Shown: positions 4,901-26,587 of the stretch, piece by piece
Layout: each line of letters starts with the position of its first letter
Position numbering within the stretch: position 1 is the first letter of the stretch
Made by a program: the position numbers and the translations under genes
NCBI GenBank assembly: GCA_035544015.1
Contig: DATKIP010000010.1
Coordinates: forward strand, 6,449 to 70,448
Direction: 5' to 3'
Length of the DNA stretch: 64,000 nt
From: Candidatus Saccharimonadia bacterium
GTDB taxonomy: Bacteria > Patescibacteriota > Saccharimonadia > UBA4664
Notes under the pieces: generated by a model
Database searches by the model: none
What the model was told of the DNA's origin: nothing
What the model saw: only the letters and a program-made list of their open reading frames with translations

Positions 4901-6145
4901 AATATTCACGCTCAAATCCGAAGCGCTGGCCGTCAGCAAGGTAGTAGCGTCGGACTTCAGCGCCAGATCCCCGCCGCTCGTCTTAAAATACGCCGTCGAG
5001 CTCCCGCCTTCCCACGAAAAACCCGCCAATCGATTCTCGCTCTGGCTCCACAGCGCAATCGCCGGCCACAAGTTACTATTCGTCCGCGCGTCAAACACCG
5101 ACAACCCTGTGCCGTGATCCGCTGCCGCACCGGTGAGCCCGGTCGCAATCACCGCCGCTCCCGCCGCCACGGCGTACTTTGAAACCGCCAGCGTACTCGG
5201 GATGCCGCCCGTCACCGCCGCGTACGATGTCAGATTCGAACCCGCCGCCGAGAAAATCGCTCCGCCGTTCACTTCAAACGTCGCCTGCGGATTAGCCGTA
5301 CCCAGATTCACCCCCACCCGGTTATTCGACGTATCCACGGTCAAAATATTGGTCGTCGTTCCCGCCTTTTGCACCACGAGAGCCGCCACAGAATCGGTGC
5401 TGGGCCGAAACACCGTCTGCCCCGCATTGTTAATCTGCAGCACCACCGCCGCGCCGCGCTGCAGGTTGATGATATCCGCGGTACCACCCGTCTTGTTGAT
5501 GCCGATCGAAGGGTTCGATGTCGAGCTGTCGGTTTGCACCCCCTGGGCCAGCTGCACAAATTGCCCGCTCGTCAGCCCACCCAACTTCCCTGCATTATCG
5601 GCCTGCAACGCATACACCGCCGAGCTGAGTCGCTTCATCGGCAGCAATTCGCCGTCGTACGTGGGCGTATTTGACACCGCCGTCCCGCCCACATCCATGC
5701 TCAGCCACAGCGTATCCTGGTTGAAGTCTATAGCCGTATTCGTGTTACCCTGGCAACTCCCCCCGCTAAACGCACAGTAAGTGCCAAGCGTCGCCGAGAA
5801 GTACCCGTTTTTGACCACCACCCCCGCCGACGACCCCGAGGCCACCGAATTTTGCCACAGCTCTGTCCACTTCAAGGTTCCGCCGGTATCACCTGCTACG
5901 TTACCCGGACCGTCTTGATAGATCTTAAACCGCAGGTTGTAATTACCGTCGGCCACCACCGCCCCAGTGTTGGTCAGCAAACGGCCTTGAAAATTAATCT
6001 GCTTATTAATCCCGGCTGCCGCCTGAACCGACGACTGACCGCCATCCCCCCCAACCACAACGAACCCAGCAACCGCGAGGGTCAGGGCTATACGTAGAGT
6101 GATGCGAACGAGACGCCGACAAAAACCGTGCTGGAGCTGACCCAT
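1928..6145 (-). CDS. giant secreted fibrous surface protein (1405 aa); Gly/Thr/Ala/Ser-rich beta-helix-like repeats; C-terminal concanavalin A-like/LamG-like lectin domain; no membrane or sortase anchor
   Basis: Signal-like N-terminus, then mature AAGINKQINFQGRLLTNTGAVVADGNYNLRFKIYQD module shared with the 18628-25395 giant protein. C-terminal WHHFKVWVHATNNIEYFVDDVSIG is ConA-like. Low-complexity repeats throughout. Confidence 0.8.
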   Translation of the reverse strand: MGQLQHGFCRRLVRITLRIALTLAVAGFVVVGGDGGQSSVQAAAGINKQINFQGRLLTNTGAVVADGNYNLRFKIYQDGPGNVAGDTGGTLKWTELWQNSVASGSSAGVVVKNGYFSATLGTYCAFSGGSCQGNTNTAIDFNQDTLWLSMDVGGTAVSNTPTYDGELLPMKRLSSAVYALQADNAGKLGGLTSGQFVQLAQGVQTDSSTSNPSIGINKTGGTADIINLQRGAAVVLQINNAGQTVFRPSTDSVAALVVQKAGTTTNILTVDTSNNRVGVNLGTANPQATFEVNGGAIFSAAGSNLTSYAAVTGGIPSTLAVSKYAVAAGAAVIATGLTGAAADHGTGLSVFDARTNSNLWPAIALWSQSENRLAGFSWEGGSSTAYFKTSGGDLALKSDATTLLTASASDLSVNIQASGAYKIGGTTVCSGTVCTPAAGSGNYIQNSTGFQNGNFALVNNGSTSADTAVIKQSTSQTGYLLRVQNSGATVDYLTVSAATGTVGVTGAAGGSQTALNVATNVASNTGVVIQGASSQTADFLQVQDSTGATIGRVNAGGDLEMLGIINSSFGGIGKSGNGLLYSEQFDNAVWTKTNVTTPVADTDAAPNTSTTAESLADSSPGGLVSQPSTLVASGSTFIFSVWLKTTTGTQAVDLRIDGSTLGTGTKTTVTATTTWQRFSVTQNGTGFTGNMVAVIFPGGTAGSGTVRAWGAQLWTGSTVRVYSRTIGNAWASGRGVVTSSGLFVSDAASNAVLVVQGAVSQSGDLFQAQNSAGTTLAKVSAAGALTAVGVNAGTGLIQGTGGLTVTGAVSLTGTATGGIPTVSIDMTNSDTTGFGVGARSTLTTSPGSANSATTLGNGFIAQPASGGSITYSGDYMAAYSQVSWQGSNVSTGRLIGFAGKTIVNSGTGAVTNAIGILAENTLSSAVTNSYVLKVADNAGSVAPTNAYGVYVDNLTSGTNRYPLYLAGSSKILFDVNSSGQIGVNLPTASVASADLTFGEGSTRAVNVLTRTTNAAGNALTVTAGAGGSGATGVAGGSLTLAAGAAAGTTGNANGGDVLAYGGAKVNSGTDGNILLAYNGSIAVGKVGIGTGSPSRMLEVDGTALVKVAGDAFEVQDGGGLSELLVDTSNDRVYVGNRTPDTVGAVLVLDTKTVAVDPSGLDGAMYYNSGYRRMRCYYDSSWRFCNDPAGLLWGFNIEEEFVDGGRNWNSGASGTSSSSAATGPDLATRIGQFSMITGTTTTGKASVWYGSAGPEQTIVGGGEEMEFAVNIPTVPDATNDYDVYMGLCDSQTGACTDGMYFKIDRAVSTTKWVYAVAKGGSVTETASTTSFSAGWHHFKVWVHATNNIEYFVDDVSIGSIASATNVPTGTTNGTEPSFSIIKQAGTVGRALVLDYFQYRNTFTAAR

Positions 6146-6236
6146 TCCTCACAAACTACTTACGCTCTCATGGTACGCTGGCCTATCTGGAAACGCAAGC
6201 AGTATTAGCCTCGAAAAACCGTGGAAAAACCGAAAA

Positions 6237-7169
6237 TTACCGCTCCAAAAGCAAATGTCGACGACGCAATTTTCGCAGTTCGCGACGTTCGCCCAGCCAA
6301 AAAAATATCACCATCACCACCGCCAAACCATACAGCGGCCAGGCTGTCACCAATGCCCCCGGCAAGGCCCCCAGTCCGTGCGACGCGCCGTAAGCCTCCA
6401 CCGGTCCGTTCACGACCGTCACCACCTGAAGATAAGCCGTATTCCCCAAGCTGTCCGTCACGCGCACGATCACCTGATACGTCCCAGGCTGCGCGTAGGT
6501 GTGACGAGCCGTCACCGCCCCCTCTCCCGTCTGGCTCGACAAACTCGTGGCGTAATCGCCAAAATCCCAGCTCACCGCGTACGGACCCACGCCACCCACA
6601 ATCGTAATCGTACGCGCAATCTGTTCCCCCGGATTGCCCCCCAGCACTGTTTGGCTGGTCTCCAGAAACAGCTGTTTGCCCACCGTGCCCGCCGTCCGGT
6701 CCAGCGAGGGCGCATCATAAAACACCGTTACCGCCGGCGAATCCGGCCCAAATTGGCCGAGCGCATCGGATACCCGCGCTACCAAGCGATTGGCCCCAGC
6801 AAACAAGTCCACCAGCAGCGAAAAGGTGCCGTCGTCACGACACACGGTCGCGCCCGCAAATACCTCGTTTTTCTCGATCGTCACAAACGTCCCCGCCGGA
6901 CACGCTCCCGACACCGTCACCGGAATGCTCGAGGTATGCGAACCATCGCTGGGGCTCAGAATCGTCGCCGACACGCTCGGAGCCGGCCCGCGCACCGTGC
7001 CGATGAGCCCCACCGAGCCCGATTGCGGATTCACCGCCGGCGCCGCCGCCGAAACCGTCAGGCTCGCGCCCACCAGCAACAACCCCGATACCAGCAGCCC
7101 AAACAACAATCCCGCGTACGAAGTGTGCCGATGCGGCCTCACCCTGCCAAAATGCTCGTTGCCCAGCAT
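6237..7169 (-). CDS. PKD-domain bitopic membrane protein (N-terminal signal-anchor, C-terminal TM helix plus basic tail)
   Basis: VSWDFGDYATS...HTYAQPGTYQVIVRVTD is a textbook PKD motif. C-terminal ...VVMVIFFWLGERRELRKLRRR. Paralog of 32021-32983. Confidence 0.75.
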   Translation of the reverse strand: MLGNEHFGRVRPHRHTSYAGLLFGLLVSGLLLVGASLTVSAAAPAVNPQSGSVGLIGTVRGPAPSVSATILSPSDGSHTSSIPVTVSGACPAGTFVTIEKNEVFAGATVCRDDGTFSLLVDLFAGANRLVARVSDALGQFGPDSPAVTVFYDAPSLDRTAGTVGKQLFLETSQTVLGGNPGEQIARTITIVGGVGPYAVSWDFGDYATSLSSQTGEGAVTARHTYAQPGTYQVIVRVTDSLGNTAYLQVVTVVNGPVEAYGASHGLGALPGALVTAWPLYGLAVVMVIFFWLGERRELRKLRRRHLLLER

Positions 7170-8143
7170 TACCGGCGGTTATTCGCCTGTTCAATGATGT
7201 GCTGGTTGTACCGGCGCAGGCCCAATCGCAGCAGGAAGAACAATACCAACAGGCCCACCAGCACCAGCCCGATCAATCGCCACGGAATCACCCAAAACGT
7301 CAGCGTGCTATCGAGCTTTTTGTTCCCGGCGTACGTCAACGACAATTTGGCCGTATACCGACCAAACAGCCGCTTTTCGCTCCAAGCCAGCTCAAACCGC
7401 CGAATACTATCGGGCAGCACATTGCCACCTTTGTCGTTAACCTTCAGATTAGCTACCTGCCGGCCAAACATATTGGTGATCTTCACCGACCCCTGCGGTT
7501 TTTCGTGCACACTGCCGTCATTCTTGACCCGCACCAAAAAGTCCAGCGGCCCATACTCAAACCAAGGTCCCGGCTTACCCTGCCGCGTCACACCAAATTC
7601 CGTCAACGACAACTGATCTTTAATCTGCCCGCTCACTTTGAGCAATATCAACGTCCCCACGCTCGCCGACAAGGCCACGCCCGTACCCTCAAGCTCCGGC
7701 GGCACCGCCGTAAACCGCACCACCCCAAAGTGTCCGCCCGGCTCCGCGTTCGCCGGCACCGCAATGCTCACCGTAGTCGACTTCAATTCTTGCGGCGCCA
7801 ACCTCAAATCCGGCACCCCCGACACCCAATATTTAAGCGAAAACCGCGTGGCGCCCGTTTCATCGAGCAGCAACCTCGGCTTACCCTCTTCGTCGGCCCC
7901 GGCACCAAAGTCGTCGGCCTTGCCCTTGGCGATCAACTCACCGCGCGTCACATTGCGCACACGAATAGCAGCCGTGACCGTCTGGCCCGGATCCGCCTCG
8001 AGCTCGATCACGGGCGGCGAAATTTCCAATCCCTGGCCGGGCGAACCCACGGGCGGCGTGGGCGTGGAGGCCCAAGCCAACGTGGGGGCCACCATTACAA
8101 CGCCCAGGAGACTAATTAGTCCACTCACATACCACTTACGCAT
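7169..8143 (-). CDS. DUF916/DUF3324-like (CscA-like) cell-surface protein with C-terminal TM anchor
   Basis: Signal peptide MRKWYVSGLISLLGVVMVAPTLAWA. GSVHEKPQGSVKITN and FWVIPWRLIGLVLVGLLVLFFLLRLGLRR at the C-terminus. Paralogs at 25635-26579 and 26588-27652 share the GNVHVVP and WVIPW motifs. Family assignment by motif and topology only. Confidence 0.55.
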   Translation of the reverse strand: MRKWYVSGLISLLGVVMVAPTLAWASTPTPPVGSPGQGLEISPPVIELEADPGQTVTAAIRVRNVTRGELIAKGKADDFGAGADEEGKPRLLLDETGATRFSLKYWVSGVPDLRLAPQELKSTTVSIAVPANAEPGGHFGVVRFTAVPPELEGTGVALSASVGTLILLKVSGQIKDQLSLTEFGVTRQGKPGPWFEYGPLDFLVRVKNDGSVHEKPQGSVKITNMFGRQVANLKVNDKGGNVLPDSIRRFELAWSEKRLFGRYTAKLSLTYAGNKKLDSTLTFWVIPWRLIGLVLVGLLVLFFLLRLGLRRYNQHIIEQANNRR

Positions 8144-8206
8144 TACGATCAGTGTATAGCATAAGCCAGATATGGCGCAACTCGACTGTTTACGAATGCC
8201 AAGCCA

Positions 8207-9229
8207 TTAAAACGAAGCAGTACAAATATATGTCATAGTCGCCGTATACACTCCCGCCGCCTGCGCGCCACCAATATTCACGATATACGATGACGTAAAC
8301 GTATTCGCGTTCGTGGGCGCCAGCCCCGCGGCCACCACGTCACCACTCGCGAACCGATACAAATCAGGCGTGCCATACGCACCGCTAAACGTCCCACTGC
8401 CCGCACCGCTCGGATCTGCCCCCAGCGCCGGGGTCCCATTGGCCCGCAAATTCAGGCCAAACTGGCTCGTCCCGATCACACTCCCCGTCTGCGTCGCCAA
8501 GGCTGGTATCGTATTTACACCCGACGCCAACGTGGTACCCGTAACAGTGATCGCGTAGCCATTCGCCGCATTCGTCTGCGCCTGCATCACGCTCGTGCCC
8601 GACCGCGTCACCGTGGGCGAAAAATCTCCAAAATCAATCGTCGAGCCACTTACCGTCGTGCAGTTGCCCGCAATCGACGTACCGACACAAAACACCAGAA
8701 TCTCCGGCGTCACCCCGGTAAGCTGCACCGGCTGGGCGGTACTCAGCGCCACCGTGCCCGTATCGACCGCCCCCGTTGCACCGTCGGTGCCCGTGTAGGT
8801 CGTAATGCGCACAAAGTAGCTCAAGTTGGCTGTGCTCGGGTTGGTGATAGACCCAAGCGTAAAACTCATGGCCGTTCCCGCACCCACCGGCGCCGCCGTG
8901 CGCGTAATATACGGCGCTCCATTCGAGCCGTTCACCATACTAAACCCGCCCGGGCTCTGCGCCGCCAACGTCGCGCTCGTAGTCACCACGCCAGCCGGCG
9001 TCACGCACGCCCCTGTGGGCGCACCACAAATCTGAAAACCCACGGAGCCGATGCTAGCCGCCGTCGCCGTGGTCGCGTTCACGGCGTAGCTGGTGCTCAC
9101 GCCCTGGCCGCTCGATCCCACCACCACATTGCGGGGCGCCAAGCCAGCCGCCTCGGTGGCCAGTGGCATCAATCCAGTCACCCACACCCCCGCCACTATG
9201 AGTCCAGTGCGCAGTTTGCCCATGATCAA
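8207..9229 (-). CDS. secreted WxL-like surface protein (divergent C-terminal WxL-type motif)
   Basis: Signal peptide. Conserved FQICGAP, LVFCVGTS and FGLNLR-N-TP-G-D-SG motifs. C-terminus GVYTATMTYICTASF resembles G-Y-G-LTWTL of WxL domains with W replaced. 4-nt overlap (ATGA) with the upstream gene. Confidence 0.55.
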   Translation of the reverse strand: MIMGKLRTGLIVAGVWVTGLMPLATEAAGLAPRNVVVGSSGQGVSTSYAVNATTATAASIGSVGFQICGAPTGACVTPAGVVTTSATLAAQSPGGFSMVNGSNGAPYITRTAAPVGAGTAMSFTLGSITNPSTANLSYFVRITTYTGTDGATGAVDTGTVALSTAQPVQLTGVTPEILVFCVGTSIAGNCTTVSGSTIDFGDFSPTVTRSGTSVMQAQTNAANGYAITVTGTTLASGVNTIPALATQTGSVIGTSQFGLNLRANGTPALGADPSGAGSGTFSGAYGTPDLYRFASGDVVAAGLAPTNANTFTSSYIVNIGGAQAAGVYTATMTYICTASF

Positions 9230-10317
9230 AACGTTGCAGTACAGATGTACGTTAACGTCGCCGTATACACACCTGCCGCTTGATCGCCGCCCACATTCAC
9301 GACATACGAGTTGGTAAACACATTGCTCTTCGTCACCCCCGCCACACTCGCTACCGTATCGCCATTGAAAAACCGAAAGCTATCGGGCGTGTTGTAGCCG
9401 CCAAATCCCGTCGCCGTACCGAGGCCGCTCACGTCCGTGCCCACATTGGGAGTCGCGTTATCGCGCACATTGGTGCCAAATTGCGCCACCCCTGTAGCAG
9501 CACTACAACTCGGCGTGCAACCGCCGGAATTCCCGCTCTGCGTCCCCATGGCCGCAATGGTGTTCGAGCCGCTCGTGAGCGTGGTGCCGTGAAGCGTGAT
9601 GGCGTAGCCAAAACCCGCATTGGTGCTCGCGCTCATGAGGCTCGTGCCGGTGTTCGTGGCTGTGGGCGAAAACACCCCCAGGTTCACCGCCGACCCCGTG
9701 ATATTGGTGCAATCGGTCCCGCTCGTTCCCACGCAAAACACGAGGCTCTCGGGCATCACGCCGCTCGCCACGATCTGGTTGGCCGTATCCATCGCCACCG
9801 CCCCAAAGTCCGTCCCCGGATACGCCGGCGCTGCAGCCGCCGCATCAGTATAGGTTGAGATGCGCAGAAAATACTCTTTGTTGCTAGCGCTCGGATTCGT
9901 CACATTGTTGAGCACCACCGAGGCCGCACCGTTCAAGGTAGCCGCCGAATGCGTCAGCACCAGATTCGTCCCCGAGGCCGAGGCGCCCGTCTGCGACCCC
10001 ACCGACCACCCCAAGCCGAGCGACATACTCCCAAGCGTCGCCGCCCCCAGGCTGGCCCCGCTCGAGTCACCCGTACCCGCACAGGCCGTAGTCAGCACCG
10101 GCGAGTCACAAATCTCAAATTTGATCGAGCCCAACGATTGGCTCCCCGAAAGCGTAAACCCAATCGTGTACGCCACCCCCGTGGCGCCCCCGGCCGAGGT
10201 CGACACCACCGCATTGCGGCTCGTCAGCTGGCCAGCCGCCTGCGCGACAGGCGATAACCCAGCACACACCACGAGCCCCACAACCATCGCCGCTATTATT
10301 TTTTTTGTTTGTTTCAT
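9226..10317 (-). CDS. secreted WxL-like surface protein paralog
   Basis: MKQTKKIIAAMVVGLVVCAGLSPVAQA signal. FEICDSP, LVFCVGTSGTDC, FGTNVRDNATPNVGTDVSG. C-terminus GVYTATLTYICTATF. Confidence 0.55.
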   Translation of the reverse strand: MKQTKKIIAAMVVGLVVCAGLSPVAQAAGQLTSRNAVVSTSAGGATGVAYTIGFTLSGSQSLGSIKFEICDSPVLTTACAGTGDSSGASLGAATLGSMSLGLGWSVGSQTGASASGTNLVLTHSAATLNGAASVVLNNVTNPSASNKEYFLRISTYTDAAAAAPAYPGTDFGAVAMDTANQIVASGVMPESLVFCVGTSGTDCTNITGSAVNLGVFSPTATNTGTSLMSASTNAGFGYAITLHGTTLTSGSNTIAAMGTQSGNSGGCTPSCSAATGVAQFGTNVRDNATPNVGTDVSGLGTATGFGGYNTPDSFRFFNGDTVASVAGVTKSNVFTNSYVVNVGGDQAAGVYTATLTYICTATF

Positions 10318-10348
10318 AGCTTACTCACCCCCGCGGACGAGAAATCAA

Positions 10349-11452
10349 TTAGAACGTACCGGTCGCGACCCAAGTAAACGTCGCACTATATGCACCAGGC
10401 TTGGTCGTATTCCCTGCTTGCGCCGCATAGGCCACAGTGTAAAGGTTGGGAACGGTCGGCCCAGTAGAGCTCGCCACCGTCCGCGGCGTAGCACCGGCCT
10501 GGAACGCGAAGTTGTCGATCGTATTGTATGGCGCGCTCACCGCTCCCGAACCCGACCCACTAATGTCGGCGCCAATGTTGGGCGTAGCGTTATCGCGCAA
10601 GTTAATGCCAAACTTCCCCGTCCCAGCCACAAACGTTCCCGCCGTGCCCCCAAAATCCGTGATACAGTCGTTGCTCGAGCTCAGACTCCCCGCGCAAGCC
10701 GTGCCGCCGGTGCCGCCCGGACTCGTCGTGATGTAGGTGATCACGTATCCCGTAGTCGCGTTCGTATCCACCGCCATGAGCGAGATGCCGCCGGAAGGCG
10801 TCGAGGAGCTCAACACGTTGTCGCTGCCCACACCCAAGTTCACCGTGGTTCCAGTCAAACCACCGCCCCCGCAACCCGTGCCGCTCGTGCCCACACAAAA
10901 CGTCAGGCTTTCTTGCACGTTCGCCGCCAAACTAATCTGGCGCGCCGTCGACACCGCCATGGCGCCGAAGTCGAGCTCAGCCGAAGCCCCCGTGTCGGAA
11001 TACGTCGTAATACGCGTGTAGTAACTCAAGTTGGCCGTATTCGGATTGGTCACCGCGTTAAACTGCGCGGTAAATGTAGCATTACCCGCGGTACCCGTGG
11101 CGTTCGAAATGATCACCTGGGTAGCATTCTGCGTTCCCGAAATCGCAAAGCTACTGAGTGCTGCCGAGGTCGGCGCCGTAGTCTGGAACGTCGCAGTCGC
11201 TATGCTCGCACTGCTCGGCGCCGCACAGGTGGTTTGCTGTAGCGGCGAGTCACACACCTGAAATTTAATTCCCTTCACCGTCGTCGCGGTCGGACCCGTC
11301 CACGTAAACGCATAGCTCGTACTCGCCGCCGCCGCCGAACTCGTGAGCGTAGTCGACCGAGCCGTAATCTGAGCCGCACTCGCCGCCGTGGGGATACTCG
11401 ACGCCCCCAGCACCAACGACACCAACCCAAACCACGTCACCGCCCGACGCAT
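10349..11452 (-). CDS. secreted WxL-like surface protein paralog (start taken at the MRRAVTWFG signal peptide; the ORF track extends to 11539 via a TTG codon)
   Basis: FQVCDSP, LTFCVGTSGTGC, FGINLRDNATPNIGADISG. C-terminus GAYSATFTWVATGTF retains the W of WxL. Confidence 0.55.
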   Translation of the reverse strand: MRRAVTWFGLVSLVLGASSIPTAASAAQITARSTTLTSSAAAASTSYAFTWTGPTATTVKGIKFQVCDSPLQQTTCAAPSSASIATATFQTTAPTSAALSSFAISGTQNATQVIISNATGTAGNATFTAQFNAVTNPNTANLSYYTRITTYSDTGASAELDFGAMAVSTARQISLAANVQESLTFCVGTSGTGCGGGGLTGTTVNLGVGSDNVLSSSTPSGGISLMAVDTNATTGYVITYITTSPGGTGGTACAGSLSSSNDCITDFGGTAGTFVAGTGKFGINLRDNATPNIGADISGSGSGAVSAPYNTIDNFAFQAGATPRTVASSTGPTVPNLYTVAYAAQAGNTTKPGAYSATFTWVATGTF

Positions 11453-11596
11453 CAACCCGCGGTAATGAGCGTATAAAATTTCCCGCTTGGTCATGTGCTT
11501 GATAAATCCTTCATTTATTTTGCTGCGGCCACTATCCAATTCATCATAGCATAAGCACTGTTTCGAGTGTCAATGAACTCGCGTGCGGCAAGCACT

Positions 11597-12373
11597 TTAA
11601 TAGGTCCCGGTAGCCACCAACTCCAATGTACTCGTATATTTTCCACCTGGCGTCGTCGTGCTCATGTTGGCCAAAAAGGTCATGGTGTAGTCCGTCTCAC
11701 CCGACGACTTCGGCGCCGAAGCCACCACTTCACCGCTGTTAAAGCGCCATTTATCCGAAATCGTATACGGCCGCGTCGTGCCATAGGTTCCGGTCACCCC
11801 GTCGCCCGCCACGCCGTAGCTAAATGATCCCGACGGCACTTGCGCCGGATTGGCGCCCACCGCCGCCGACGTATTAAGCACCGTGTTCACCCCAAATTGC
11901 TCCGTCCCCACACTCGACGCCGTATCGGTAGTCAGCGGGGTCAGCGCGTGACTACCGTTTTTGGGTGGCGTCCCGATAGCGGTTATCACATAGCCATACG
12001 TCGTGTAGTTGATGGCCGAAAACGTCGCTACTCCCGTCGCCTTCACGCTCGTCGACAAGGCCCCCAAATTAACCGTAGCCGTATTCACAATAAACGTCAG
12101 CCCCGGCTGAGCCGTCGTATTAAACCCCGCTCCCGACGAATAATTCGTCGAGCTCGAAGTGCCCACCGCGGTTTCACCCAAACTACTACCCCCATCGTCC
12201 ACCCCCGGCGCGTAGCTATAATGCGACGAAGCCCCCGTGAAATCCCCGCCGGCTCCCACTTCACTCTCGTTAAGGCTATAGCTCGCCGATTGCTGCAGCT
12301 CGGCATGCGCCGCCCCACTCGCGGCCACCGCCACGACACACGCCACCACCAACTGTCGACTCCAACGTCTCAT
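11597..12373 (-). CDS. shorter secreted WxL-like surface protein paralog (258 aa); first gene of module-A operon
   Basis: Signal MRRWSRQLVVACVVAVAASGAAHA. FGVNTVLNTSAAVGANPAQVPSG. C-terminus GKYTSTLELVATGTY. Confidence 0.5.
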   Translation of the reverse strand: MRRWSRQLVVACVVAVAASGAAHAELQQSASYSLNESEVGAGGDFTGASSHYSYAPGVDDGGSSLGETAVGTSSSTNYSSGAGFNTTAQPGLTFIVNTATVNLGALSTSVKATGVATFSAINYTTYGYVITAIGTPPKNGSHALTPLTTDTASSVGTEQFGVNTVLNTSAAVGANPAQVPSGSFSYGVAGDGVTGTYGTTRPYTISDKWRFNSGEVVASAPKSSGETDYTMTFLANMSTTTPGGKYTSTLELVATGTY

Positions 12374-12483
12374 TAAAATCCATCTTGAACCATTTGCCCA
12401 CCACGCGCAATCCGCTCAAGCTCCGATGGAATATCCGAAGCTTGAGCAGTATACTGAAGCTCATAGTAAGCTAGTGAGCCACC

Positions 12484-13431
12484 ATGCCCCCGGGCAGCAC
12501 CCCACCTTTGGCGCCGTCTCCCCAGACGCCCCTCCCCAAACCGCCTCCGCCGGCCAAAAACCGGCACGCTGGCTGGCACCGACTTACCGACCGGGCCAAT
12601 GTCGTCGGCGCCGTGGTCGGCCTCTTTGCCTTTTTGCTCGCCGTCGGCGGGGTAGTGGGATTTTACTACGCCCGGCTCAACCAGCCGGCCAAAACCGAAC
12701 CCAAGAGTAATGTCACCGCCCTCAGCCCCGCTGAGCTCGCCAAACTCAGCGAGATCGGCAATAGCCTCGGCAGCTCCGGCCAAACCCTCAACATCGGCGC
12801 CGGCGCCCTCTTCCGCGGCAAGGTCGATGTGGCCGGCGACCTTTCCATCGGCGGCCGCCTCAACGCCAACGGCCCCGTCACCCTCAGCCAGCTCAATGTC
12901 ACCGGTGGCGGGGGTGTGATCGGCCTCAATGTCGGCTCCAATCTCAACGTCACCGGCACCACCGTCCTGCAGCAAACACTGAGCGTCACCGGACTCGCCA
13001 CCTTCGCCGGCGGCATCAATGTCGGCGGCAATGCCAGCTTCAACGCCATCAACGCCAGCTCACTGGCCGTGCGCAACCTCAGCATTTCCGGTCCGCTCGT
13101 CGTCGGCCACCTCACCACCCAGGGCCCCACGCCGGGCTTCGTCACCGGCCCGGCCGTCGGCTCAGGCGGCACCGCCAGCATCAGCGGCAACGACACCGCC
13201 GGCACGCTCAATTTCAACACCGGCGGCGGCCCACCCAGCGGCGTGCTCGGCACCATCACCTTCCGCGCCGCCTACACCGCCACCGTCCACGTGCTGCTCA
13301 CTCCGCTCACCGGCGCCGGCGCCGCCACGCCCGCCTATGTCACCCGCACCACCGGCGGCTTCCAGGTGCACACCGACACCGCCCCACCCAGCGGCGCCGT
13401 ATTGAGTTATGATTACTTGGTAACGCAATAG
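12484..13431 (+). CDS. membrane-anchored protein: Pro-rich N-terminus, one TM helix, beta-helix-like L-x-V-x-G repeats, conserved C-terminal beta-sandwich (H-type-lectin/tail-fibre-like?) domain
   Basis: TM VVGAVVGLFAFLLAVGGVVGFYY. Repeats LNVTGGGGVIGLNVGSNLNVTGTTVLQQTLSVTGLATFAGGINVGG. C-terminal GTITFRAAYTATVHVLLTPL...VLSYDYLVTQ. Paralog of 33709-34836. Divergent from the module-A operon. Confidence 0.6.
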   Translation: MPPGSTPPLAPSPQTPLPKPPPPAKNRHAGWHRLTDRANVVGAVVGLFAFLLAVGGVVGFYYARLNQPAKTEPKSNVTALSPAELAKLSEIGNSLGSSGQTLNIGAGALFRGKVDVAGDLSIGGRLNANGPVTLSQLNVTGGGGVIGLNVGSNLNVTGTTVLQQTLSVTGLATFAGGINVGGNASFNAINASSLAVRNLSISGPLVVGHLTTQGPTPGFVTGPAVGSGGTASISGNDTAGTLNFNTGGGPPSGVLGTITFRAAYTATVHVLLTPLTGAGAATPAYVTRTTGGFQVHTDTAPPSGAVLSYDYLVTQ

Positions 13432-13450: not shown

Positions 13451-14026
13451 ATGCCTCGCGTAGAACCAAATCCCCCCTCTGTCATTCTCGGCAAATACTG
13501 GCCCCTCACCCTCTTGGCCGTCGTGCTTGTACTCGGCGGCATCGGCGCCGTGGTCTACCAAAACCGCACCGGCCACCGCCTCTCCCTCACGCCCACTCCC
13601 AGCGCCCCCGCCGCCACCCCCGCCTCGACTGCCACCCTCTATCTCTTCCCCGCCGCCGGCACCATTACCGCCGGCGGTACGCTCACCATCGAGATCCGCG
13701 AAAACAGCGGCGCCGCTGCCGTAAACGCTGTACAGGCCAACTTCACCTACCCCGCCGATAAGCTCGATTTCGTCAGCGCCGACGCCGCCACCGGCGCCTT
13801 TAGCATTGCGGCCGAATCCACCGGCCAAAACGGCCTGGTCAAGATCGCCCGCGGCACCATCAAACCCGTGAGCTCCGACCATTCAGTCGCCAAAGTCACC
13901 TTCCGCGCCAAAACCACGCCCGGCACCGCCGCTCTGAGCTTCGCCGCCGGCTCGGCCCTCATTTCGACCCCCGGCGCCGCCAACATCCTGGGCACCCCCA
14001 CCGGCGCCACCCTCACCATCAAATAA
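13451..14026 (+). CDS. membrane-anchored protein with cohesin-like beta-sandwich domain (tentative)
   Basis: N-terminal TM WPLTLLAVVLVLGGIGAVVY. LTIEIRENSGAAAVNAVQANFTYPADKLDFVSADAATGAFSIAA...VAKVTFRAKTTPGTAALSF resembles type-I cohesin strand pattern. Confidence 0.4.
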   Translation: MPRVEPNPPSVILGKYWPLTLLAVVLVLGGIGAVVYQNRTGHRLSLTPTPSAPAATPASTATLYLFPAAGTITAGGTLTIEIRENSGAAAVNAVQANFTYPADKLDFVSADAATGAFSIAAESTGQNGLVKIARGTIKPVSSDHSVAKVTFRAKTTPGTAALSFAAGSALISTPGAANILGTPTGATLTIK

Positions 14027-14039: not shown

Positions 14040-17000
14040 TTACGGTGCCGTGTCCAAAATGCAGCCGTTCGCCGGCGTCGCATTACACCCCGTGTTCGTA
14101 AACGCCGCCCCGTGCCGCAGCCGCCGCGTCGGGTTGGCGTGGTAGTACAAATCAATCTCCGACACGTTCGTCTCCGCGCTCGTCGCCACATCCGGGAAAG
14201 TACCCGACAAGCTGTCATCGAGCACCAATACAATCAGGTAGTTAAATGCCACCCCCGTATTCGCACCACTCGAATCCAGCGGCTGCACCCCGTAGAAGTT
14301 GTTAAAAATCACCGGGTCAAACACTTGCGCCACCCCAAATTGGGTCGCGCTCGCCTGCTCGGTGTAAAACCGCACCGCCACCTTGCTTTCCGGCCCCGAC
14401 AGCGATCCCGTGAGTACCAGCTGACTCGGCGAGGTATCCACCTCGGTATTAAACAATTTCGAATAATGCCCCGTCCGCGCGATCGCGAACTGCCCCGCGC
14501 GATCATTGGCCGCCGACACGGTAGTACATACCCCGGCGCTCAACACACAACCACCCGTCACATACATCACGCCGCCAAACAACGCCGCCGCGCCATGCGC
14601 ATGCGCGCCGCTCATCGCATTCGCCGAATGTTGGGTGGTACCGAGAGTACCATTCGCATTAATGTCCACATAGAGCACCTCAGCCGTCGACCCCTCGTCT
14701 CCCACAAAATACATATAGCCGTTCGCAGCCACCGCCTGCCGCGCCACCATCCCGCGGGCCACATCGGTGGTGTAGCTCCAGCTGGCGATCGAACCATCCG
14801 CCGCCACGGTGCCAAACTGCACATCGAGCAAATTATTGGTGCCATCGGTACCACCTATCACGTACAACTTGCCGTTATACGACACGAGGCTAAAGCCCGA
14901 CCGCGCCGTCGTGAATCCTGTCGTGTTGAGCGTCCACGTCCCCAGCCCGCCAGTACTAGTATTAATAGCCGCGTAATACACATCGCTTTTCTTCGTTCCC
15001 GAGCCATTATCTCCGCCCGCCACAAACAAATAACCGCGTGCAATCGCCGCCCCAAAGCTGGTGCGATCCGTCCCAGCCGGCAGATCGGCGTTCGTCCACG
15101 AGCCGCCCAGCGTACCCGTACTATCGATCGTGGTGTACCACACCGTCGCTGTCGCCCCCGAGCTCGCACTCTTGCCACCGATCACATACAAATACCCGTT
15201 ATACGCCACTGCCTGCAACGACGACCGCACCTCGCCACTTGGCAGCGAAGTTTGCGCCGTCCAGCTGCCCGTCACCTTGCCTCCCGGATCAATGTCGGCT
15301 CGCTCGATATCACCAAGCCCCGTACTGCAAGCCCCCGTCGTGTACACTCGGCAGCCTCCGATCACATACAGCTTACCGTTGTACGCCACCGACGCGTGAT
15401 CCGCCCGCCCCGCCGTTCCGCCGACCGTCGGCAAATCCACCACATTGCCGGTACCAGTGGTAAACGCCCCCGTCTGCCCATTGCCACCATTATTGGGCTC
15501 ATACAGCTCGGTCGTGTTCGCCGTCGTCACGAACGCCGTCGCGCACTGCTTGAACGTCCCCGCCGCCAGCGTCCCAGCGCACCCGCCCATGATGTACATG
15601 TACCCACCCGTCGCCACCGCCGTCGTCTCGCCCCGCGCCGTCGAGAGCTGCCCATCCGTCTTGGTGTACGACAACGTCGTCGCCTGGCCAATGTTGGCCG
15701 CCGCCCACACATTGCCGGCGTCCGGCGCCGTCGGGCTGCCGGTCGTGGGATCAAGCTTGGTCCAGCGAATCGTCGCCTGCTGCGTCGTCGATCCCGTATT
15801 GTACCCGCCAAAACTATACAAATAGCCATTGTGCACCGCCATGCCCATCCCCCGGCTCGCAAACGCCCCTGTCAATGTCCCCAGATCGGCGATCGTCAAA
15901 TTCCCGCTGTTGTCGATCGCGATCCGCTCGGTCGCATGCGCCGTTGTCACGTACGTCCCGCCCGAAGTCGACATGCCGCCCACCACATACAGCCAGTTGC
16001 CCCACTGCCCGCCGCCGATGTCCCACCGCGCGTTGGCGAGCGTCGCGGCGGTAGCCGGATTGGACGTCAGCTTGGCCGTCGCCCACGCCCCCGGCGCATT
16101 GCTCGCGATGGTCGATTTATAGATCGTAGTCGCTACCGTCGTGCCATTGCTCAGTCCCCCCATCACGAATATCATATTGTGCCACACCGCCGCATACCCA
16201 AACGCCAGCGCTCCCGGCAAAGCATTGGCCTCCATCGTAAACGTCCCCAGCGTACCGTTCGATGCCTGCGTCGCCGACTGCACCGTCGCTTGGTACGAAT
16301 CCACATTGCCGGTGGTATACTCCACACCCCCGATCACGTAAATTTTGTTGTTGTACCCCACCACCATGTGCCCAATCCGCCCGGCCTTGTTGGTGCCGTT
16401 GCCGATCAATACATTACCCGCCGAGGCAAACGCCCCCATCGAGCCGTTCGCATTGATCTGGGCGTACTCCACCAGCGAGCTATAGGTGTTGTTGCACGTC
16501 GCGTTATTGGCCGTGCTGCAGCCCCCGATGTAATACATGTACCCGTTGAGCGCCACGCCCTTGCCGCCCATACGCGCCGTTGTTGAGTTGCTGTCAAACG
16601 GAAAACCGCTGTGGCCGCTCATGCCGTTATCGAAGCGGCCCACATTATCGAGGTTGGTTTTAAACGTTCCACCGCGCACTCCCGGCCCCGGGCTCGGGTC
16701 GTCGCCGTCGCATTGATTGGCACTAATCTCAATCGTGCAGCCGCCCACAAAATACAAATATCCGTTATAAAACGCCGACGACGGATTGCTGCGTTCCGGA
16801 GCCGTGGCACCCGTGTAGTCGTTCGATTGCTGCCACTCTCCCACGCTGCCGTCAGCATTCAGTACCGCGTATTGCGTATCCGAAATGAAATTGCTCGCCG
16901 CCCCGCACGGAAATCCCGTCACCCGGCAGCCGCCGTACACATAAATGTGGCCGCGTTCCACCGCCACCCCATGATCGCGCCGCGCCGTCGGAAACGCCGT

Positions 17001-18626
17001 CGTGCTGATCCACGAGCCCAGCGTGCCGTCGCTTTTGATCGGCGCGTACTCCACCGTACTGAGCACCGTCGGCGTACCCGTGCGGCCGCCCGTCACGTAC
17101 ACGAAGCCATTGTAAGCCGCACCCGAGAACCGGTCGCGCGCCGTCCCCAGCGCGGTCGTAGTGGTCCAGCTCGTGATGGTGCCGTCGCCGTTGATACGCG
17201 CATACTCCACACTCGTGAGCAAACTCCCGTTGCTCGTAGCGCCCTCACCACCCATCACGTACACCACGCCCTGATAATTAGCCCCTGCCATGTAGGCCCG
17301 CGCCGTACCCAGGCTAGTCGTGGTGCTCCACGTCCCCACCGAACCATCCGAGTTGATCTTGGCGTACTCCACGGTCGCGATCGGGTTGTTGCTGGTATTT
17401 TCCCCGCCCACCGCATACAAATAGCCGTTGTAACCAAACGCCACCAGCCCCTGCCGCGCCGTGTTCAGGCTCTGGTTGGTGCTCGTACCCGTCCAGGTCA
17501 GCGCCCCGGCCGCCCCAATCGAAGCGCTGTACACTACGTTGGTCGGCGTAGTGGCCGTACCGCTGTCGGCGCCGCCCCCAATGAGATACACAAAATTGTT
17601 GTACGCCACGAGCGCCCCCGCGTACCGTGCCACCGTGATGTTGGTGCCGGTGGTCCACGCCACCACCGATCCACCGCTCAGCGGCGCCCGGCCGATTTGG
17701 TCGGCCACCGAGGTGAGGTCGATGTTGTCGTCCACGCTTCCCAACACAAAGTCGGCCGTACTCCGCAACAAAAAGGTCGGATCAATCGAAAGCGGATAAT
17801 TTGCTTTGGCTAAGCCACGAGCCCGCACCACCAAATCCTTCCCGCTCAGCCCAAACCGCGCACTCACCGCACTGCGCTGGCCCGTTTCGCGCACCACCGG
17901 TGCCGGAATCGCAAACATCAAGTAGGTTTTGGCCCCCGCCACGCGCGCCTTATCGAGCATCTCGCGGTCATTGTCGCTGCCGTAGCTCACATTGCCATAC
18001 AGCTCCGGACTGGCCGTATAAAATCCCACGCTCCCGTCATCCTCCAGCCGCGCCTCCACCGTATCCGGAATATCCAAACGATAATGAAATTCCATCGCGT
18101 CCGCCTTCGGCGCCGAGGTCAGCACGATGTCTTCTTTCAGCCCATTGCCCTTGGGCGTAAACATCATCTGCCCCGCCGCATCTTTGAGCGGATACGTCAC
18201 CTGCCCATTACTGCTCCGCCCCTCCATGAGCGCCACCTGCGGCACAAATTTCACCGACACGTCGTTGACATTGTCGTGCACCTCCACCCCTTGCGCCGGA
18301 TTGTCAGGCAACGTAGCCGAATACAGCTGCGTGTCTTTTTTGCCCCCGGCCCCCACCGCCATTTGGAGCTTATCTTTCGGATCAGACCACGCGTCGGCTT
18401 GACCCTCGGCATTAAACACGCTCGCGTGTTTATCTTTGTCATACCGCAATTTGCTCATGAGCGCCGGGCTCGGCCGCTCCGCCACCGCTGCTGCCGCCGG
18501 CGTCATGCGATAGCGCTCATTCGTTACCAGCCAATCCGCCACCGGCGCCACCATACCCGCCAGCAACACCCCCATCACCACCGCATGCACCGGCCGGCGC
18601 ACATCGAGATTGATACCCAGCTTCAC
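14040..18626 (-). CDS. giant secreted multi-Kelch-repeat (beta-propeller) protein, 1528 aa, no anchor
   Basis: At least 20 repeats of the Kelch signature (YNGYLYAVGG, YQGVVYVMGG, YNGFVYVTGG, AYNGKLYVIGG, ...TVEYA.I..DG..G.W). GTG start at 18624-18626, 1 nt after the upstream stop (18628-18630). An alternative ATG (MGVLLAGMVAPVA) lies about 51 nt in. Confidence 0.75.
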   Translation of the reverse strand: MKLGINLDVRRPVHAVVMGVLLAGMVAPVADWLVTNERYRMTPAAAAVAERPSPALMSKLRYDKDKHASVFNAEGQADAWSDPKDKLQMAVGAGGKKDTQLYSATLPDNPAQGVEVHDNVNDVSVKFVPQVALMEGRSSNGQVTYPLKDAAGQMMFTPKGNGLKEDIVLTSAPKADAMEFHYRLDIPDTVEARLEDDGSVGFYTASPELYGNVSYGSDNDREMLDKARVAGAKTYLMFAIPAPVVRETGQRSAVSARFGLSGKDLVVRARGLAKANYPLSIDPTFLLRSTADFVLGSVDDNIDLTSVADQIGRAPLSGGSVVAWTTGTNITVARYAGALVAYNNFVYLIGGGADSGTATTPTNVVYSASIGAAGALTWTGTSTNQSLNTARQGLVAFGYNGYLYAVGGENTSNNPIATVEYAKINSDGSVGTWSTTTSLGTARAYMAGANYQGVVYVMGGEGATSNGSLLTSVEYARINGDGTITSWTTTTALGTARDRFSGAAYNGFVYVTGGRTGTPTVLSTVEYAPIKSDGTLGSWISTTAFPTARRDHGVAVERGHIYVYGGCRVTGFPCGAASNFISDTQYAVLNADGSVGEWQQSNDYTGATAPERSNPSSAFYNGYLYFVGGCTIEISANQCDGDDPSPGPGVRGGTFKTNLDNVGRFDNGMSGHSGFPFDSNSTTARMGGKGVALNGYMYYIGGCSTANNATCNNTYSSLVEYAQINANGSMGAFASAGNVLIGNGTNKAGRIGHMVVGYNNKIYVIGGVEYTTGNVDSYQATVQSATQASNGTLGTFTMEANALPGALAFGYAAVWHNMIFVMGGLSNGTTVATTIYKSTIASNAPGAWATAKLTSNPATAATLANARWDIGGGQWGNWLYVVGGMSTSGGTYVTTAHATERIAIDNSGNLTIADLGTLTGAFASRGMGMAVHNGYLYSFGGYNTGSTTQQATIRWTKLDPTTGSPTAPDAGNVWAAANIGQATTLSYTKTDGQLSTARGETTAVATGGYMYIMGGCAGTLAAGTFKQCATAFVTTANTTELYEPNNGGNGQTGAFTTGTGNVVDLPTVGGTAGRADHASVAYNGKLYVIGGCRVYTTGACSTGLGDIERADIDPGGKVTGSWTAQTSLPSGEVRSSLQAVAYNGYLYVIGGKSASSGATATVWYTTIDSTGTLGGSWTNADLPAGTDRTSFGAAIARGYLFVAGGDNGSGTKKSDVYYAAINTSTGGLGTWTLNTTGFTTARSGFSLVSYNGKLYVIGGTDGTNNLLDVQFGTVAADGSIASWSYTTDVARGMVARQAVAANGYMYFVGDEGSTAEVLYVDINANGTLGTTQHSANAMSGAHAHGAAALFGGVMYVTGGCVLSAGVCTTVSAANDRAGQFAIARTGHYSKLFNTEVDTSPSQLVLTGSLSGPESKVAVRFYTEQASATQFGVAQVFDPVIFNNFYGVQPLDSSGANTGVAFNYLIVLVLDDSLSGTFPDVATSAETNVSEIDLYYHANPTRRLRHGAAFTNTGCNATPANGCILDTAP

Positions 18627-18627
18627 C

Positions 18628-21600
18628 CTACCACCTCGTCAGATAAGGTAATGTGATAGTCCCCAACCGCACATCACCTGTGGTGGCCGCCGCCGTCAGG
18701 TGAATCCGGACGATCATATTCGAACCCTGAGTGTACGTACCCGTGATCGCCGGCGTCGTCACGCTGCGCGCCGTCCAAGTGGTACTCACCGTCAGCGCCG
18801 ACGCGTTGTAGTTGGTAGCCACCGTGCCCGCTGTATCGGTAATCGTCACCGACATCGAGCTACCCGCGCTGCCATACGTCCAAAACGTCGGCGAACCCGT
18901 CCAGGCGCTGAAATCATCGGGCACCGGCACCGTCGCCACGATGTCGTAATCTTGAGCCGTACCTTGGCTCGTCACCCATTTGTAGTACCCAAAGCGCTGT
19001 GTCGATTCGTATGCCGCCGTCATCGTCCCCGTATTATTCGAACCATCCGCATCCAGCACCGCTCCCGCAAATTCCCCCGTCAGCCGCACCGCCGAGGCAT
19101 GCCGCGCCGTTCCCGCAAACGTCACCTCCTTGGTAGTCGCATCAAACGTCGCGTTATTGGTGCCGTCTCCCACCCGAATCGTCCCCGCAAACTCACTCGA
19201 CCCGCTCACGTAGAGCGCCGCCGTAGCATTCGCTCCCCCGCTGCCGAGCGTCGGCGTCCCCGTACCAATGCGCACCTTGAAGTTGGCCGTATCCACCTGC
19301 ATCGCATAGCTCGACGACGTCCCGCCCAGATAGGTAGTCCCCGCCGCCGTCACGATGCCGTTGGCCTGCACCCCAAACACATCCGCCGCATTCGCCTGCA
19401 GCCTCAGCAAGTAGTTCGCGCTCACCGTGCTCTTATTAATGAAAATACTCGGGTTCGCACTCGCATCCGCCTGCGCCGTCCCCGGCGCCAGCTGAATGTA
19501 CCCGTTCGCATAATACGCCGCGTACGTCGTGCCGCACGTAGCCGCCAACGTCGAGCACAGCTGGTAGGTGCCGGCCGTACCAGCCGCAAATTGATAAATA
19601 ATATTGCCCGTCGGGTTGGCAAACTGCAAGCTCGTGGTATTCGTACCATTCGACACCGTCAGCGCGCTCGACGTGTTGCCCTGCAAACTCAGCGTGCCCC
19701 CCGCACGACCGATATTCAGCGTGGATGCGTTCGTCGTCCCAATGCTCACCGCCACCGCCGCATTAGCGTCAATGGTGCCCGCCGTATTAAACTGCAAGCT
19801 CGACAGCCCACTCACCGCACCCGCACTCGTAATGCCCCCGGCGTTGTTGTTAATACCGCTGAAAATGCTCGCACCCGCATTCGCCGTCAGCGCCGCCGTG
19901 TTCACCGTGGCCCCCGAGCTAAACGTCGCCGCGTTCGTCACCGTCAGGCTGCTGGCCGTGAGCAAGCCACCCGTCCCTACCGTGCCCGTGAAGCTCGCGG
20001 TGCTCGAAATTGTTTGTCCGTTAATCGTACTCGCCGTCGTCACCGCCCCCGCTGCGTTCACCGAGAATTTGCTCGTTTCCGTCCCGCTCGGACCGCTCCA
20101 CAGATCGATCAAATTGCCGCCCACCGAGGCATTCGTCAGCTTGGCATAAATCAGCGCCTCACCCGCCCCAGCGTTCGCCGCCGCCGTCACCTTGAGCGTG
20201 CTGGCCGTGCCGGTGCCGTTGGCGAGCACAAGCACATTCGAGGCCAGCGAGCCGTTGTTGCTAAATTGATACAGAAACTGTCCCGCCGTCAGATTGGCGC
20301 TCGAGGTCTCGTTGGCCGTCCCCTTGCGCAAATAGCCCGTGCTGCCCGCCCCGCACGAATTCAAGTCCGAGGTACAAATCGTGTACGTCGTGTTGGTCGT
20401 CGGGCTCGCAAACTGGTACGTGCCGGCACCCGCGATGGTCGCAAAATTCACGCTCACCGTATTGGCACCGTTGGTCGCGGTAATCTTGGTACTATTGCCG
20501 CCTTGCAGGGTCAACGTCTGCGTCGTCGATCCCACCGTCATAGCCGCGCTCGGCGTGATCGTGTTGCTCTGCAGCGTCATGCCCTGGGTGATCACCTGGC
20601 TACCGACCGTATCCACCGCAAACTGCGACACCCCACTCGCATTCTGCACATCAAAGGCCGTCGCCGAATCCGTCCCGTTGGCCTTCACGACCACCGATCC
20701 CGTCGTGCCGCTGCCGCCGGTCGCTCCCGCCTGCAGCACCAGGTTGCCGCCGTTGTTGGCTCCCGTGCCGCTCGTGCCGGCCTTAATCGTCAAACTGTTG
20801 CCGGCCCCGCTCGCCGCCGCGGCCACCGACAGCGTCCGCGCCCCGCCCGACGTGAACGTCACATTGGCCGCCGCCAGCCCCACTGTGGTCGCCGCCAGCA
20901 CCACCCCGCCCCCGGCCGCACTGCCGCCCTGCACCGTGGTGATGTTGCCAGCGTTGGCCGCCGTCGAGCCAATCGTCACCACCTGCGCCCCCGTCGCGCT
21001 CGTAGTGTCGGCAATGTGCACGCTTGAGGCCGCCGTCTGCACCCCCACCGCGCCCACATTCACCGCCGTGCCGTTCAGGTTCAAATTGGCCGCCGCGCTC
21101 ACGCCCAAATCCCCCGCCGCCGTGCTCCATGTGGCCGCCGCCGCCGAGGTGATCGTGAGCGCGCCCGAGGTCGTCGTGAGCACCGCCGCCGCATTACTCG
21201 TGATACTCACAGCCCCACCCGACTGCGTAAACGCCCCCTGCACCGTAACGCTCTTGCCACTTGCCACCGTCACATTTTGGTTCAAATTAATCCCGGCGGT
21301 CGCGTTCGTCGTACCGATATTCAGCGTCGTCGTGCCGCTCGGCGTGTCCAGCAGCGGCGTCAGCAGCGATGTATTCGCCCGCCCCGTCCCGCTAATCTGA
21401 TAATTCCCCGTCTGCGTCGTACCCGTGCGGTTCAAAATATAACCCGTACCCGTCGTGCCGTCGCAGTTGCCCGAGTCTGCACACAGCGTCCCGCTCGTAT
21501 CCGGCAGCACCAAGCTCCGCGCACCCGTGGGAGTCGCCGAGGTCAGTGTCAGCTGATTCGTGTTGGTAGCGTCATTAAAAATGAAGCTACTGCTCGCCGC

Positions 21601-25395: not shown

Positions 25396-25483
25396 GCGTC
25401 GGCTGTTTCCACCCGTTACCCGAAATCTTCGACTCGTTGCGAGACGACTGGGTACGCGCACACCTTCACACAATTACTCCCTA

Positions 25484-25512: not shown

Positions 25513-25634
25513 GCATTATCAGCCCCAAAATGCCTCTGGTGACGACACCCGCTCTCCCCCTCGCTCCGCACTCTCCGAAACTATATTCCCGGGGACATGA
25601 ATTTTAACCCAAGCTCACGCACCAGATCATCAAA

Positions 25635-26579: not shown

Positions 26580-26587
26580 CTCGATAC

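Follow-up and report, generated by a model that had tools for sequence, protein, structure and literature searches.

Divergent pairing of a predicted membrane-anchored, tail-fibre-like protein family with Pam pilus operons in Saccharimonadia

Two paralogous genes, A and B, each stand divergently at the head of an operon of the Pam pilus type, and their family keeps this placement almost without exception in related genomes, behind a conserved promoter-like element of its own. Both genes lie in a 64,000-nucleotide stretch of contig DATKIP010000010.1 (hereafter the window, i.e., the whole of the DNA analysed), which comes from a genome of about 60% GC of Candidatus Saccharimonadia, a TM7 lineage of the candidate phyla radiation (CPR). 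Pam pili are a CPR-specific donor-strand-exchange pilus, described from Candidatus Mycosynbacter amalyticus in a June 2026 preprint (Troman et al., bioRxiv 10.64898/2026.03.03.709456). Judging from sequence and structure models, we tentatively favour reading A and B as surface fibres, probably trimeric, that accompany the Pam pili and would serve as close-range adhesins in host contact.

A first-pass annotation of the window had placed the two open reading frames (ORFs) at the coordinates of Table 1 and had assigned them one architecture (N-terminal cytoplasmic part, one transmembrane (TM) helix, repeats and a conserved C-terminal domain), and our analysis upholds it on all these counts. BLASTP aligned A with B from the TM segment through the final residue (32% identity and 48% positives over 290 aa, E 2e-33), and the common ending proposed for them, [YF]DY[LW]V[TV]Q, reads ...LSYDYLVTQ in A and ...YSFDYWVVQ in B, i.e., DYxVxQ in both. 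Homologs numbered 188 for A and 132 for B, at about 300–390 aa, and were nearly all labelled 'hypothetical protein'; they come from genomes of differing base composition. Because so many homologs keep a constant length against varied base composition we take A and B to be real genes, and on the same grounds rejected the idea that they are artefacts of a C-rich plus strand. The GC skew of that strand is uniformly and strongly negative (-0.1 to -0.34) over the whole window (1–64000), and most genes are on the minus strand; A and B are thus encoded on the C-rich strand, which may inflate Pro, Ala and Thr in their variable N-termini. The Pro-rich N-terminus, the least conserved part of the protein (commonest-residue frequency 0.29), may accordingly owe some of its character to base composition. 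A-type and B-type genes occur together on the same contigs, and in a neighbour-joining tree the A, B and Saccharimonadales clades are about equidistant (28–31% identity), from which we read the paralogy as old.

Several features suggest an uncleaved signal anchor, with the N-terminus inside and the C-terminus outside: a long stretch precedes the hydrophobic helix, no site resembling that of a signal peptidase is present, and positive residues lie to the N side of the helix. AlphaFold2, with input alignments of 36 sequences for A and 106 for B, built for A a long TM helix (residues 25–65), a short helix (82–94) and a beta-sandwich of eight strands (218–314), and for B the equivalent elements at residues 82–118, 134–146 and 274–374. 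In both models the predicted local distance difference test (pLDDT) score exceeded 90 in the C-terminal head and was 55–80 in the repeat region, where a middle stretch of about 110–130 residues carried no regular DSSP strands in the monomers. The L.V.G-type repeats reported for this stretch are nonetheless real: in an alignment of 53 orthologs the hydrophobic autocorrelation of the shaft peaked at lags of 6 (0.45), 12 (0.27) and 18 (0.22) residues. A shaft that stays unstructured in monomer models, even with 106 sequences, next to so confidently modelled a head would fit a shaft that folds only as an oligomer, and we read the hexapeptide-periodic, fibre-like shaft, the unstructured monomer models and the compact, strictly C-terminal head together as the signature of a probably trimeric fibre. 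B-type orthologs share, within the region of B residues 1–88, a cytoplasmic motif (PLxDGTxPTVLxPG..H..V.KG..S....YRRADI) that the A type lacks, which suggests a paralog-specific cytoplasmic contact.

The pairing with Pam operons was followed across relatives by scanning one genome per GTDB species, which gave 80 family loci that were translated in six frames and searched with the proteins of the window; 76 had enough upstream DNA to be informative. The family gene was immediately divergent from a homolog of pamT in 74 of these 76, and the gene order beyond pamT was conserved as well (pilins, chaperone, PamR, giant protein). In the window A is 110 nt from the pamT equivalog, and B is 142 nt from the minus-strand gene at 33012–33566, in a second operon. 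As had been proposed, the two genes head paralogous modules, whose PamR-like genes match one another at E 1e-58, their chaperone-like genes at 1e-17 to 1e-30 and their giant proteins at 1e-27. In one of the two exceptions (L079) a B-type gene has a PamR-like neighbour, as in the second module, and the other (L081; 1747–5877, plus strand) is a 1376-aa LVIVD-repeat protein that has only the head in common with the family. B-type orthologs on long contigs, four of four (L083–L086), were divergent from an operon of the second type, with rplU, rodA/ftsW and ileS coming next, just as they do in the window. The first-pass annotation's argument from conserved synteny thus gains wide support among relatives. 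In the reverse direction we used 80 metagenome loci selected by PamT, and an adjacent divergent family gene was present in 43 of the 58 informative ones; from the forward and reverse fractions, the family gene depends on its pam context more than pam depends on the gene. Six loci of the reverse set (L093, L095, L098, L105, L108 and L115) share a variant layout, in which the PamR-like gene and the giant are divergent from pamT, not at the far end of the operon; none has an adjacent tail-fibre-like gene.

In Saccharimonadales the family gene is monocistronic; on one side of it is the pam operon and on the other a convergent set of genes that looks like an ATP-synthase operon (e.g., L035), the latter assigned by gene sizes and order alone. 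The preprint on Pam pili reports a 'tail fibre-like protein' together with ATP-synthase genes at the centre of a similarity network of 30-kb windows around pamA (10.64898/2026.03.03.709456). This is the same place, between pam and the apparent ATP-synthase operon, as that of our family, and from this shared location the two are very probably one gene family. The preprint mentions the protein a single time, giving it no name, accession, structure, topology or role (10.64898/2026.03.03.709456), and its supplement holds no accession or abundance for it. The preprint does not describe the linkage of either paralog to a separate pam-type operon, nor the anchoring TM helix, the gene's dedicated promoter or the modular head, and the literature that we searched held no account of a membrane anchor, a strict pairing with pamT, a second paralog with a second operon, a promoter element or a large C-terminal family lacking a model. 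A search on Saccharibacteria and bactofilin returned no papers, and the main text of the Cell 2023 Southlakia transposon-sequencing paper does not mention such a protein. The pilus system is known and its tail fibre-like protein has been mentioned once, and the details just listed are, as far as the literature searched goes, newly described here.

The two putative promoter regions had been said to share GCAGTATRCT; this pattern has exactly two occurrences in the window, one 29 nt before the start codon of A (12446) and one 35 nt before that of B (33665), each on the plus strand. The expected count is 0.2, and a count of two was reached in 2 of 100 shuffles; within the window the motif is only moderately significant. 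A relaxed pattern, AGCNNTATRMT, gave no additional site in the window, and the remainder of the two intergenic regions (12374–12483 and 33567–33708) was not alignable. Across related genomes the motif proved real and conserved. Anchored sequences from 58 loci gave a class-wide consensus, tTTGC-N7-tAAGc.TAAGCGnTATAmT, ending 25–30 nt before the start codon, and AAGCNNTATAMT was found upstream of the family gene in 50 of 78 loci with only six occurrences elsewhere (1.31 Mb, both strands), so that the shared motif is a gene-specific, class-wide element; a generic promoter consensus was rejected on the same counts. Three B-type loci on long contigs (L083, L084 and L085) and the exceptional L079 carry AAGCGnTATGAT at the corresponding place. 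The element is most simply read as a -10 hexamer with a conserved upstream extension (AAGCGnTATAmT). In the window the -35 is weak, and neither intergenic region gave a canonical -35/-10 pair in a simple sigma-70 scan; we therefore infer promoter function from position and conservation. Nearer to pamT, the intergenic region of Saccharimonadales loci (e.g., L030, L034 and L048) has another conserved block, CTATTGTTGA...ATTTTGCAAG. Its minus strand resembles TTGCAA-17 nt-AACAAT, which makes it a candidate promoter for pamT; the block of the window's lineage, CGCAATCCGCT, differs from it but is conserved too.

Neither A nor B matched a family in Pfam or NCBIfam, the sole match being to Bactofilin below its threshold, and the closest likenesses that we found are to phage fibres, as the first-pass annotation had suspected. 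When a profile of the family was run against all PDB sequences, the sole match was the long tail fibre of Pectobacterium phage phiTE (PDB 9CUY chain g, 9cuy_g; E 7.3e-6), through the shaft repeats, and Foldseek against viral models (BFVD) gave six matches at E<1e-3, several annotated as tail fibres, the best (E 1.5e-11 over 278 columns) being an uncultured Caudovirales protein. The phiTE long tail fibre is trimeric, and for its unresolved part an extended trimeric beta-helix has been predicted (PMC11972413); the part that our profile matched is itself only predicted. Phage long tail fibres share with A and B the repetitive shaft and the globular C-terminal head, but have a baseplate-attachment domain where A and B have the N-terminal TM anchor, and the hypervariable heads of phage fibres contrast with the conserved head of A and B, which are moreover chromosomal genes at a fixed site beside a pilus operon. 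No PHROG family was matched, a scan of IMG/VR with the head patterns used found no relative, and there were no phage genes in the window or in the related loci; the genes are not part of a virion gene set.

The head itself defines a large family. A two-sequence profile searched against 1.84 billion representatives found it in 1498 representative clusters, 354 of them below 1e-10, and in all 150 among the matches listed the head was at the extreme C-terminus. The proteins that bear it are mostly of 280–400 aa, and some are of 440–1956 aa with Kelch, EPTP or LVIVD propellers, CBM_4_9 or Peptidase_S74 domains. One such giant, a Kelch protein of >1677 aa with the same head (L089; 2–5032, plus strand), lies directly upstream of pamT. 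Carried as it is by the giants of L089 and L081, the head is a mobile module, and since it also ends giant proteins of the Kelch, EPTP, LVIVD and CBM_4_9 kinds, which typically serve in binding outside the cell, a role at the surface is suggested for A and B as well. Its placement matches that of the C-terminal heads that register the trimers of phage and adenovirus fibres. An H-type lectin (PF09458) had been considered for this domain; the idea is not supported at the sequence level, with no match to the H_lectin hidden Markov model (HMM) in any of 36 members at E<=1 and no H-type lectin in the PDB sequence profile search. Many unrelated sandwiches score higher with the eight-stranded head model (integrin 7.7, CBM3b 6.4) than do the lectin structures (Helix pomatia agglutinin 2CCV, discoidin 2W94 and SLL-2 3WMP).

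Under the reading that we favour, A and B would be single-pass membrane proteins, N-in/C-out, in which the TM helix is followed by a short linker and helix, about 19 six-residue repeats and a compact beta-sandwich head. The shaft would be beta-helical, probably of three intertwined chains, and the gene would be transcribed divergently from pamT from its own conserved promoter of -10 type. A fibre so anchored in the cytoplasmic membrane would cross the envelope and present a conserved binding head at the surface, where it may serve as an adhesin at close range, in cooperation with the long Pam pili, when epibiont meets host. The functional analogues are chaperone-usher tip adhesins and trimeric autotransporter adhesins, surface fibres or tips that present a binding domain together with, or in place of, pili. 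These show no kinship to A and B in sequence or fold, and trimeric autotransporters are held by a C-terminal barrel in the outer membrane, which CPR cells lack, whereas A and B would be held in the cytoplasmic membrane by an N-terminal helix. Neither gene encodes a pilin by our searches: unlike donor-strand pilins, A and B have no Pam pilin domain, and neither matched NF058581 or NF058579 of NCBIfam at E<=0.1.

Several points weigh against this reading. Where a head has to follow the receptors of variable hosts, rapid divergence is usual. Here the family protein is as conserved as the structural proteins of the system (mean pairwise identity over 53 genomes of 0.45, against 0.49 for PamT, 0.48 for the chaperone and 0.52 for PamR), which makes a fast-evolving binder of host receptors unlikely. 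By region, conservation was 0.64 for the head, the best-conserved extracellular part, with invariant motifs GT.SISGND..GT and DY.V.Q, 0.65 for the TM helix and 0.29 for the cytoplasmic tail. The ligand of the head may then be one that is conserved among hosts, or a self component of the envelope or pilus, and the conservation of the TM helix suggests contacts inside a membrane complex. No adjacent family copy was found in 15 of the 58 pam loci of the reverse set, among which six have the variant layout, one has the gene 1.5 kb away and one has the head-bearing Kelch giant (L089). Finally, the family protein is not listed in the preprint's proteomics table.

The conservation of the protein, and of its head and TM helix above all, pulls instead towards another explanation, which we consider plausible though on balance unlikely, namely that A and B are a structural part of the Pam machinery, a membrane docking or assembly platform or a base anchor. 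Through contacts of its head and TM helix with PamT, PamR or the TM-anchored chaperones, the protein would organise the nucleation or tethering of the pilus. It would account for the strict adjacency to pamT (74 of 76 loci), for co-duplication or co-inheritance with the second pam-type operon, for a rate of evolution equal to that of the Pam proteins and for the high conservation of head and TM helix, and a Kelch giant beside pamT with the same head (L089) fits a head that docks proteins onto the pilus. A component may also be missing from the system as described, since no dedicated trans-envelope assembly machinery was found for it and the pili detach easily (10.64898/2026.03.03.709456). An essential factor, however, would be expected everywhere, and the 15 of 58 loci without an adjacent copy, six of them sharing a recurrent layout, run counter to this, a copy elsewhere in the genome being possible; moreover the gene is on its own strand with its own promoter, outside the operon, its fibre-plus-head build is typical for binding proteins and not for ushers or platforms, and Pfam and NCBIfam revealed no similarity to pilins, chaperones or ushers. 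The role of 'anchor' named among the first-pass suggestions is in any event a possible one for A and B.

The modularity of the head raises a further, improbable, alternative: that it is a general CPR module for binding the cell wall or S-layer, which fixes large secreted proteins to the surface, so that A and B would be envelope tethers linking membrane to wall and their connection with Pam mere co-location. The head is indeed always C-terminal among the matches listed and occurs on many unrelated giant surface proteins, and its high conservation is what a self ligand would lead one to expect. Such a tether nonetheless leaves the near-invariant pairing with pamT and the fidelity of each paralog to its operon unexplained, and no known wall-binding domain was matched in Pfam.

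We think it very improbable that A and B are transmembrane sensors or regulators of the pam operon (e.g., anti-sigma-like or RsgI-like, controlling transcription through the cytoplasmic tail), as the first-pass annotation had also offered. The single-pass layout with an outside beta-sandwich, the divergent placement beside an operon that might be so controlled and the conserved cytoplasmic motif of B-type proteins would suit a sensor; but the cytoplasmic part is short and variable, in the A type about 35 residues, its least conserved portion, with no recognisable domain, anti-sigma or other, the shaft outside the membrane resembles a fibre, and a gene for a sigma factor is neither adjacent in any of the loci examined nor present in the neighbourhoods examined. 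The cytoplasmic part without a domain and the absence of a nearby sigma-factor gene make a regulatory role unlikely. Almost no credence attaches to the last pair of readings, a bactofilin-type polymer-forming protein or a remnant prophage tail-fibre gene without a cellular role. The shaft does share a hydrophobic periodicity of about six residues with Bactofilin (PF04519), 22 of 36 members give sub-threshold HMM matches on it (best E 7e-4) and some homologs have been named 'cytoskeletal protein CcmA' by JGI, yet A scores 16.3 bits against a gathering cutoff of 27.9 and B has no match; the repeats are predicted to be outside the membrane in a protein with a TM anchor and a C-terminal head, and the AlphaFold2 monomers build no bactofilin beta-helix. 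The beta-helix that had been envisaged is thus not supported in a bactofilin-type form. A prophage remnant would explain the resemblance to tail fibres, but not the lack of phage genes nearby, of a head relative in the IMG/VR scan and of a PHROG family, and both readings are at odds with a gene that is under conservation and keeps one chromosomal position throughout the class.

No CPR-specific surface filament had a known structure before the Pam pili, which are thought to be the first to touch the host; the preprint itself asks what anchors them, by what means they bind to the host and which further parts the system has (10.64898/2026.03.03.709456). The pairing with pamT, the inheritance with a second pam-type operon and the conserved promoter make the present family the obvious next candidate component. 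More specifically, it is conceivable, though we consider it doubtful, that the head (GT.SISGND..GT ... DYxVxQ-COOH) is an undescribed CPR docking module that couples the fibre and the giant Kelch, LVIVD and CBM proteins to Pam; equally conceivable is a phage-type receptor-binding fibre adopted for recognition of the bacterial hosts. If the docking module were true, the family would supply a component that is missing from a new pilus class with apparently no assembly platform, be it an anchor, a nucleator or a part that attaches adhesins. The protein is small enough for structural work and has orthologs across Saccharimonadia; to this class belong cultivated, naturally transformable species (e.g., Southlakia epibionticum). 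A model of the head family, about 1500 representative clusters with none in Pfam or NCBIfam, would also aid the annotation of large CPR surface proteins.

Table 1. Genes A and B, their promoter-like elements and the neighbouring features of the window (res, residues; Ig, immunoglobulin-like)
Feature	Coordinates	Strand	Basis
Gene A, 315 aa	12484–13431	+	ORF; exact match 'hypothetical protein VMT30_00190, Candidatus Saccharimonadia' (P0001)
A, predicted cytoplasmic N-terminus	res 1–36
A, predicted TM segment	12592–12669 (about res 37–62)
A, short conserved helix	12718–12771 (res 79–96)
A, shaft of 6-residue repeats	12772–13095 (res 97–204)
A, C-terminal beta-sandwich head	13096–13428 (res 205–315)
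Gene B, 375 aa, GTG start	33709–34836	+	ORF; homolog consensus likewise begins MADxP
B, predicted cytoplasmic N-terminus, longer than that of A	33709–33975 (about res 1–88)
B, predicted TM segment	about res 91–115; helix 134–146; repeat shaft next
B, C-terminal head	34486–34833 (res 260–375)
Element AGCAGTATACT upstream of A	12445–12455	+	putative -10 TATACT at 12450–12455, 28 nt before ATG
Element AGCAGTATGCT upstream of B	33664–33674	+	putative -10 TATGCT at 33669–33674
pamT, predicted Pam tip pilin, divergent neighbour of A	11597–12373	-	NCBIfam NF058579 CPR_pilus_PamT, 244.3 bits (cutoff 240)
Pam operon 1 (module 1) beyond pamT	1928–11539	-	same gene order in about 70 related loci
Operon 1 pilins	10349–11539, 9226–10317, 8207–9229	-	paralogy among pilins; NF058581 Pam pilin C-domain match on 8207–9229
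Operon 1 TM-anchored chaperone-like gene	7169–8143	-	gene order and preprint description
Operon 1 PamR-like Ig/PKD TM protein	6237–7169	-	PKD/Glucodextran_B domains; gene order and preprint description
Operon 1 giant protein, 1405 aa	1928–6145	-
Cohesin-domain TM protein	13451–14026	+	Pfam Cohesin E 2.3e-5, 25 bits (cutoff 24.1)
Module 2, second Pam-type operon, divergent from B	14040–33566	-	paralogy of PamR, chaperone and giant to module 1
Module 2 Kelch giant	14040–18626	-	Kelch domains
Module 2 giant, 2281 aa	18628–25473	-
Module 2 chaperone-like genes	25635–26714, 26588–27712	-
Module 2 pilin-like genes	27666–28724, 28833–29972, 30123–31187	-
Module 2 243-aa gene	31175–31906	-
Module 2 PamR-like gene	32021–32983	-
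Module 2 184-aa gene	33012–33566	-
SIR2-like protein	41192–42196
HerA/DUF87 helicase	42186–44075
Schlafen AlbA_2 protein	44123–45418	-

The remaining genes of the two modules are assigned with varying firmness. Those labelled chaperone and PamR are putative, identified from gene order and the description in the preprint, with no family model. The 352- and 379-aa pilin-like proteins of module 2 had no match in NCBIfam and no sequence similarity to the pilins of module 1, and the third gene of the group (30123–31187) weakly matches the N-terminal part of the PamT model of NCBIfam; we regard all three as presumptive pilins. The 184-aa gene between the PamR-like gene and B had no family match and is missing from the four B-type relative loci examined (L083–L086), where the PamR-like gene directly faces the B-type gene, except for another gene in two of them.

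The cohesin-domain gene begins 19 nt downstream of A and is probably co-transcribed with it. It is limited to close relatives, with one or two copies after the ortholog in L001 and six matches in 82 loci. In L001, a relative of 71% identity, two PadR-family regulator genes were called inside the pam operon on the opposite strand (2804–3187 and 4383–4733, plus strand); these calls may be overlapping or spurious, or may represent lineage-specific regulators, and the window has no PadR-family genes. Farther from the two modules there is a low-GC island (41192–45418, GC 0.39–0.49 vs. about 0.60). In relatives yggT and ftsZ come directly after ileS, with no such island between, so that it is probably a recent insertion, and its SIR2-like and HerA genes look like an antiphage defence pair of the SIR2-HerA type.

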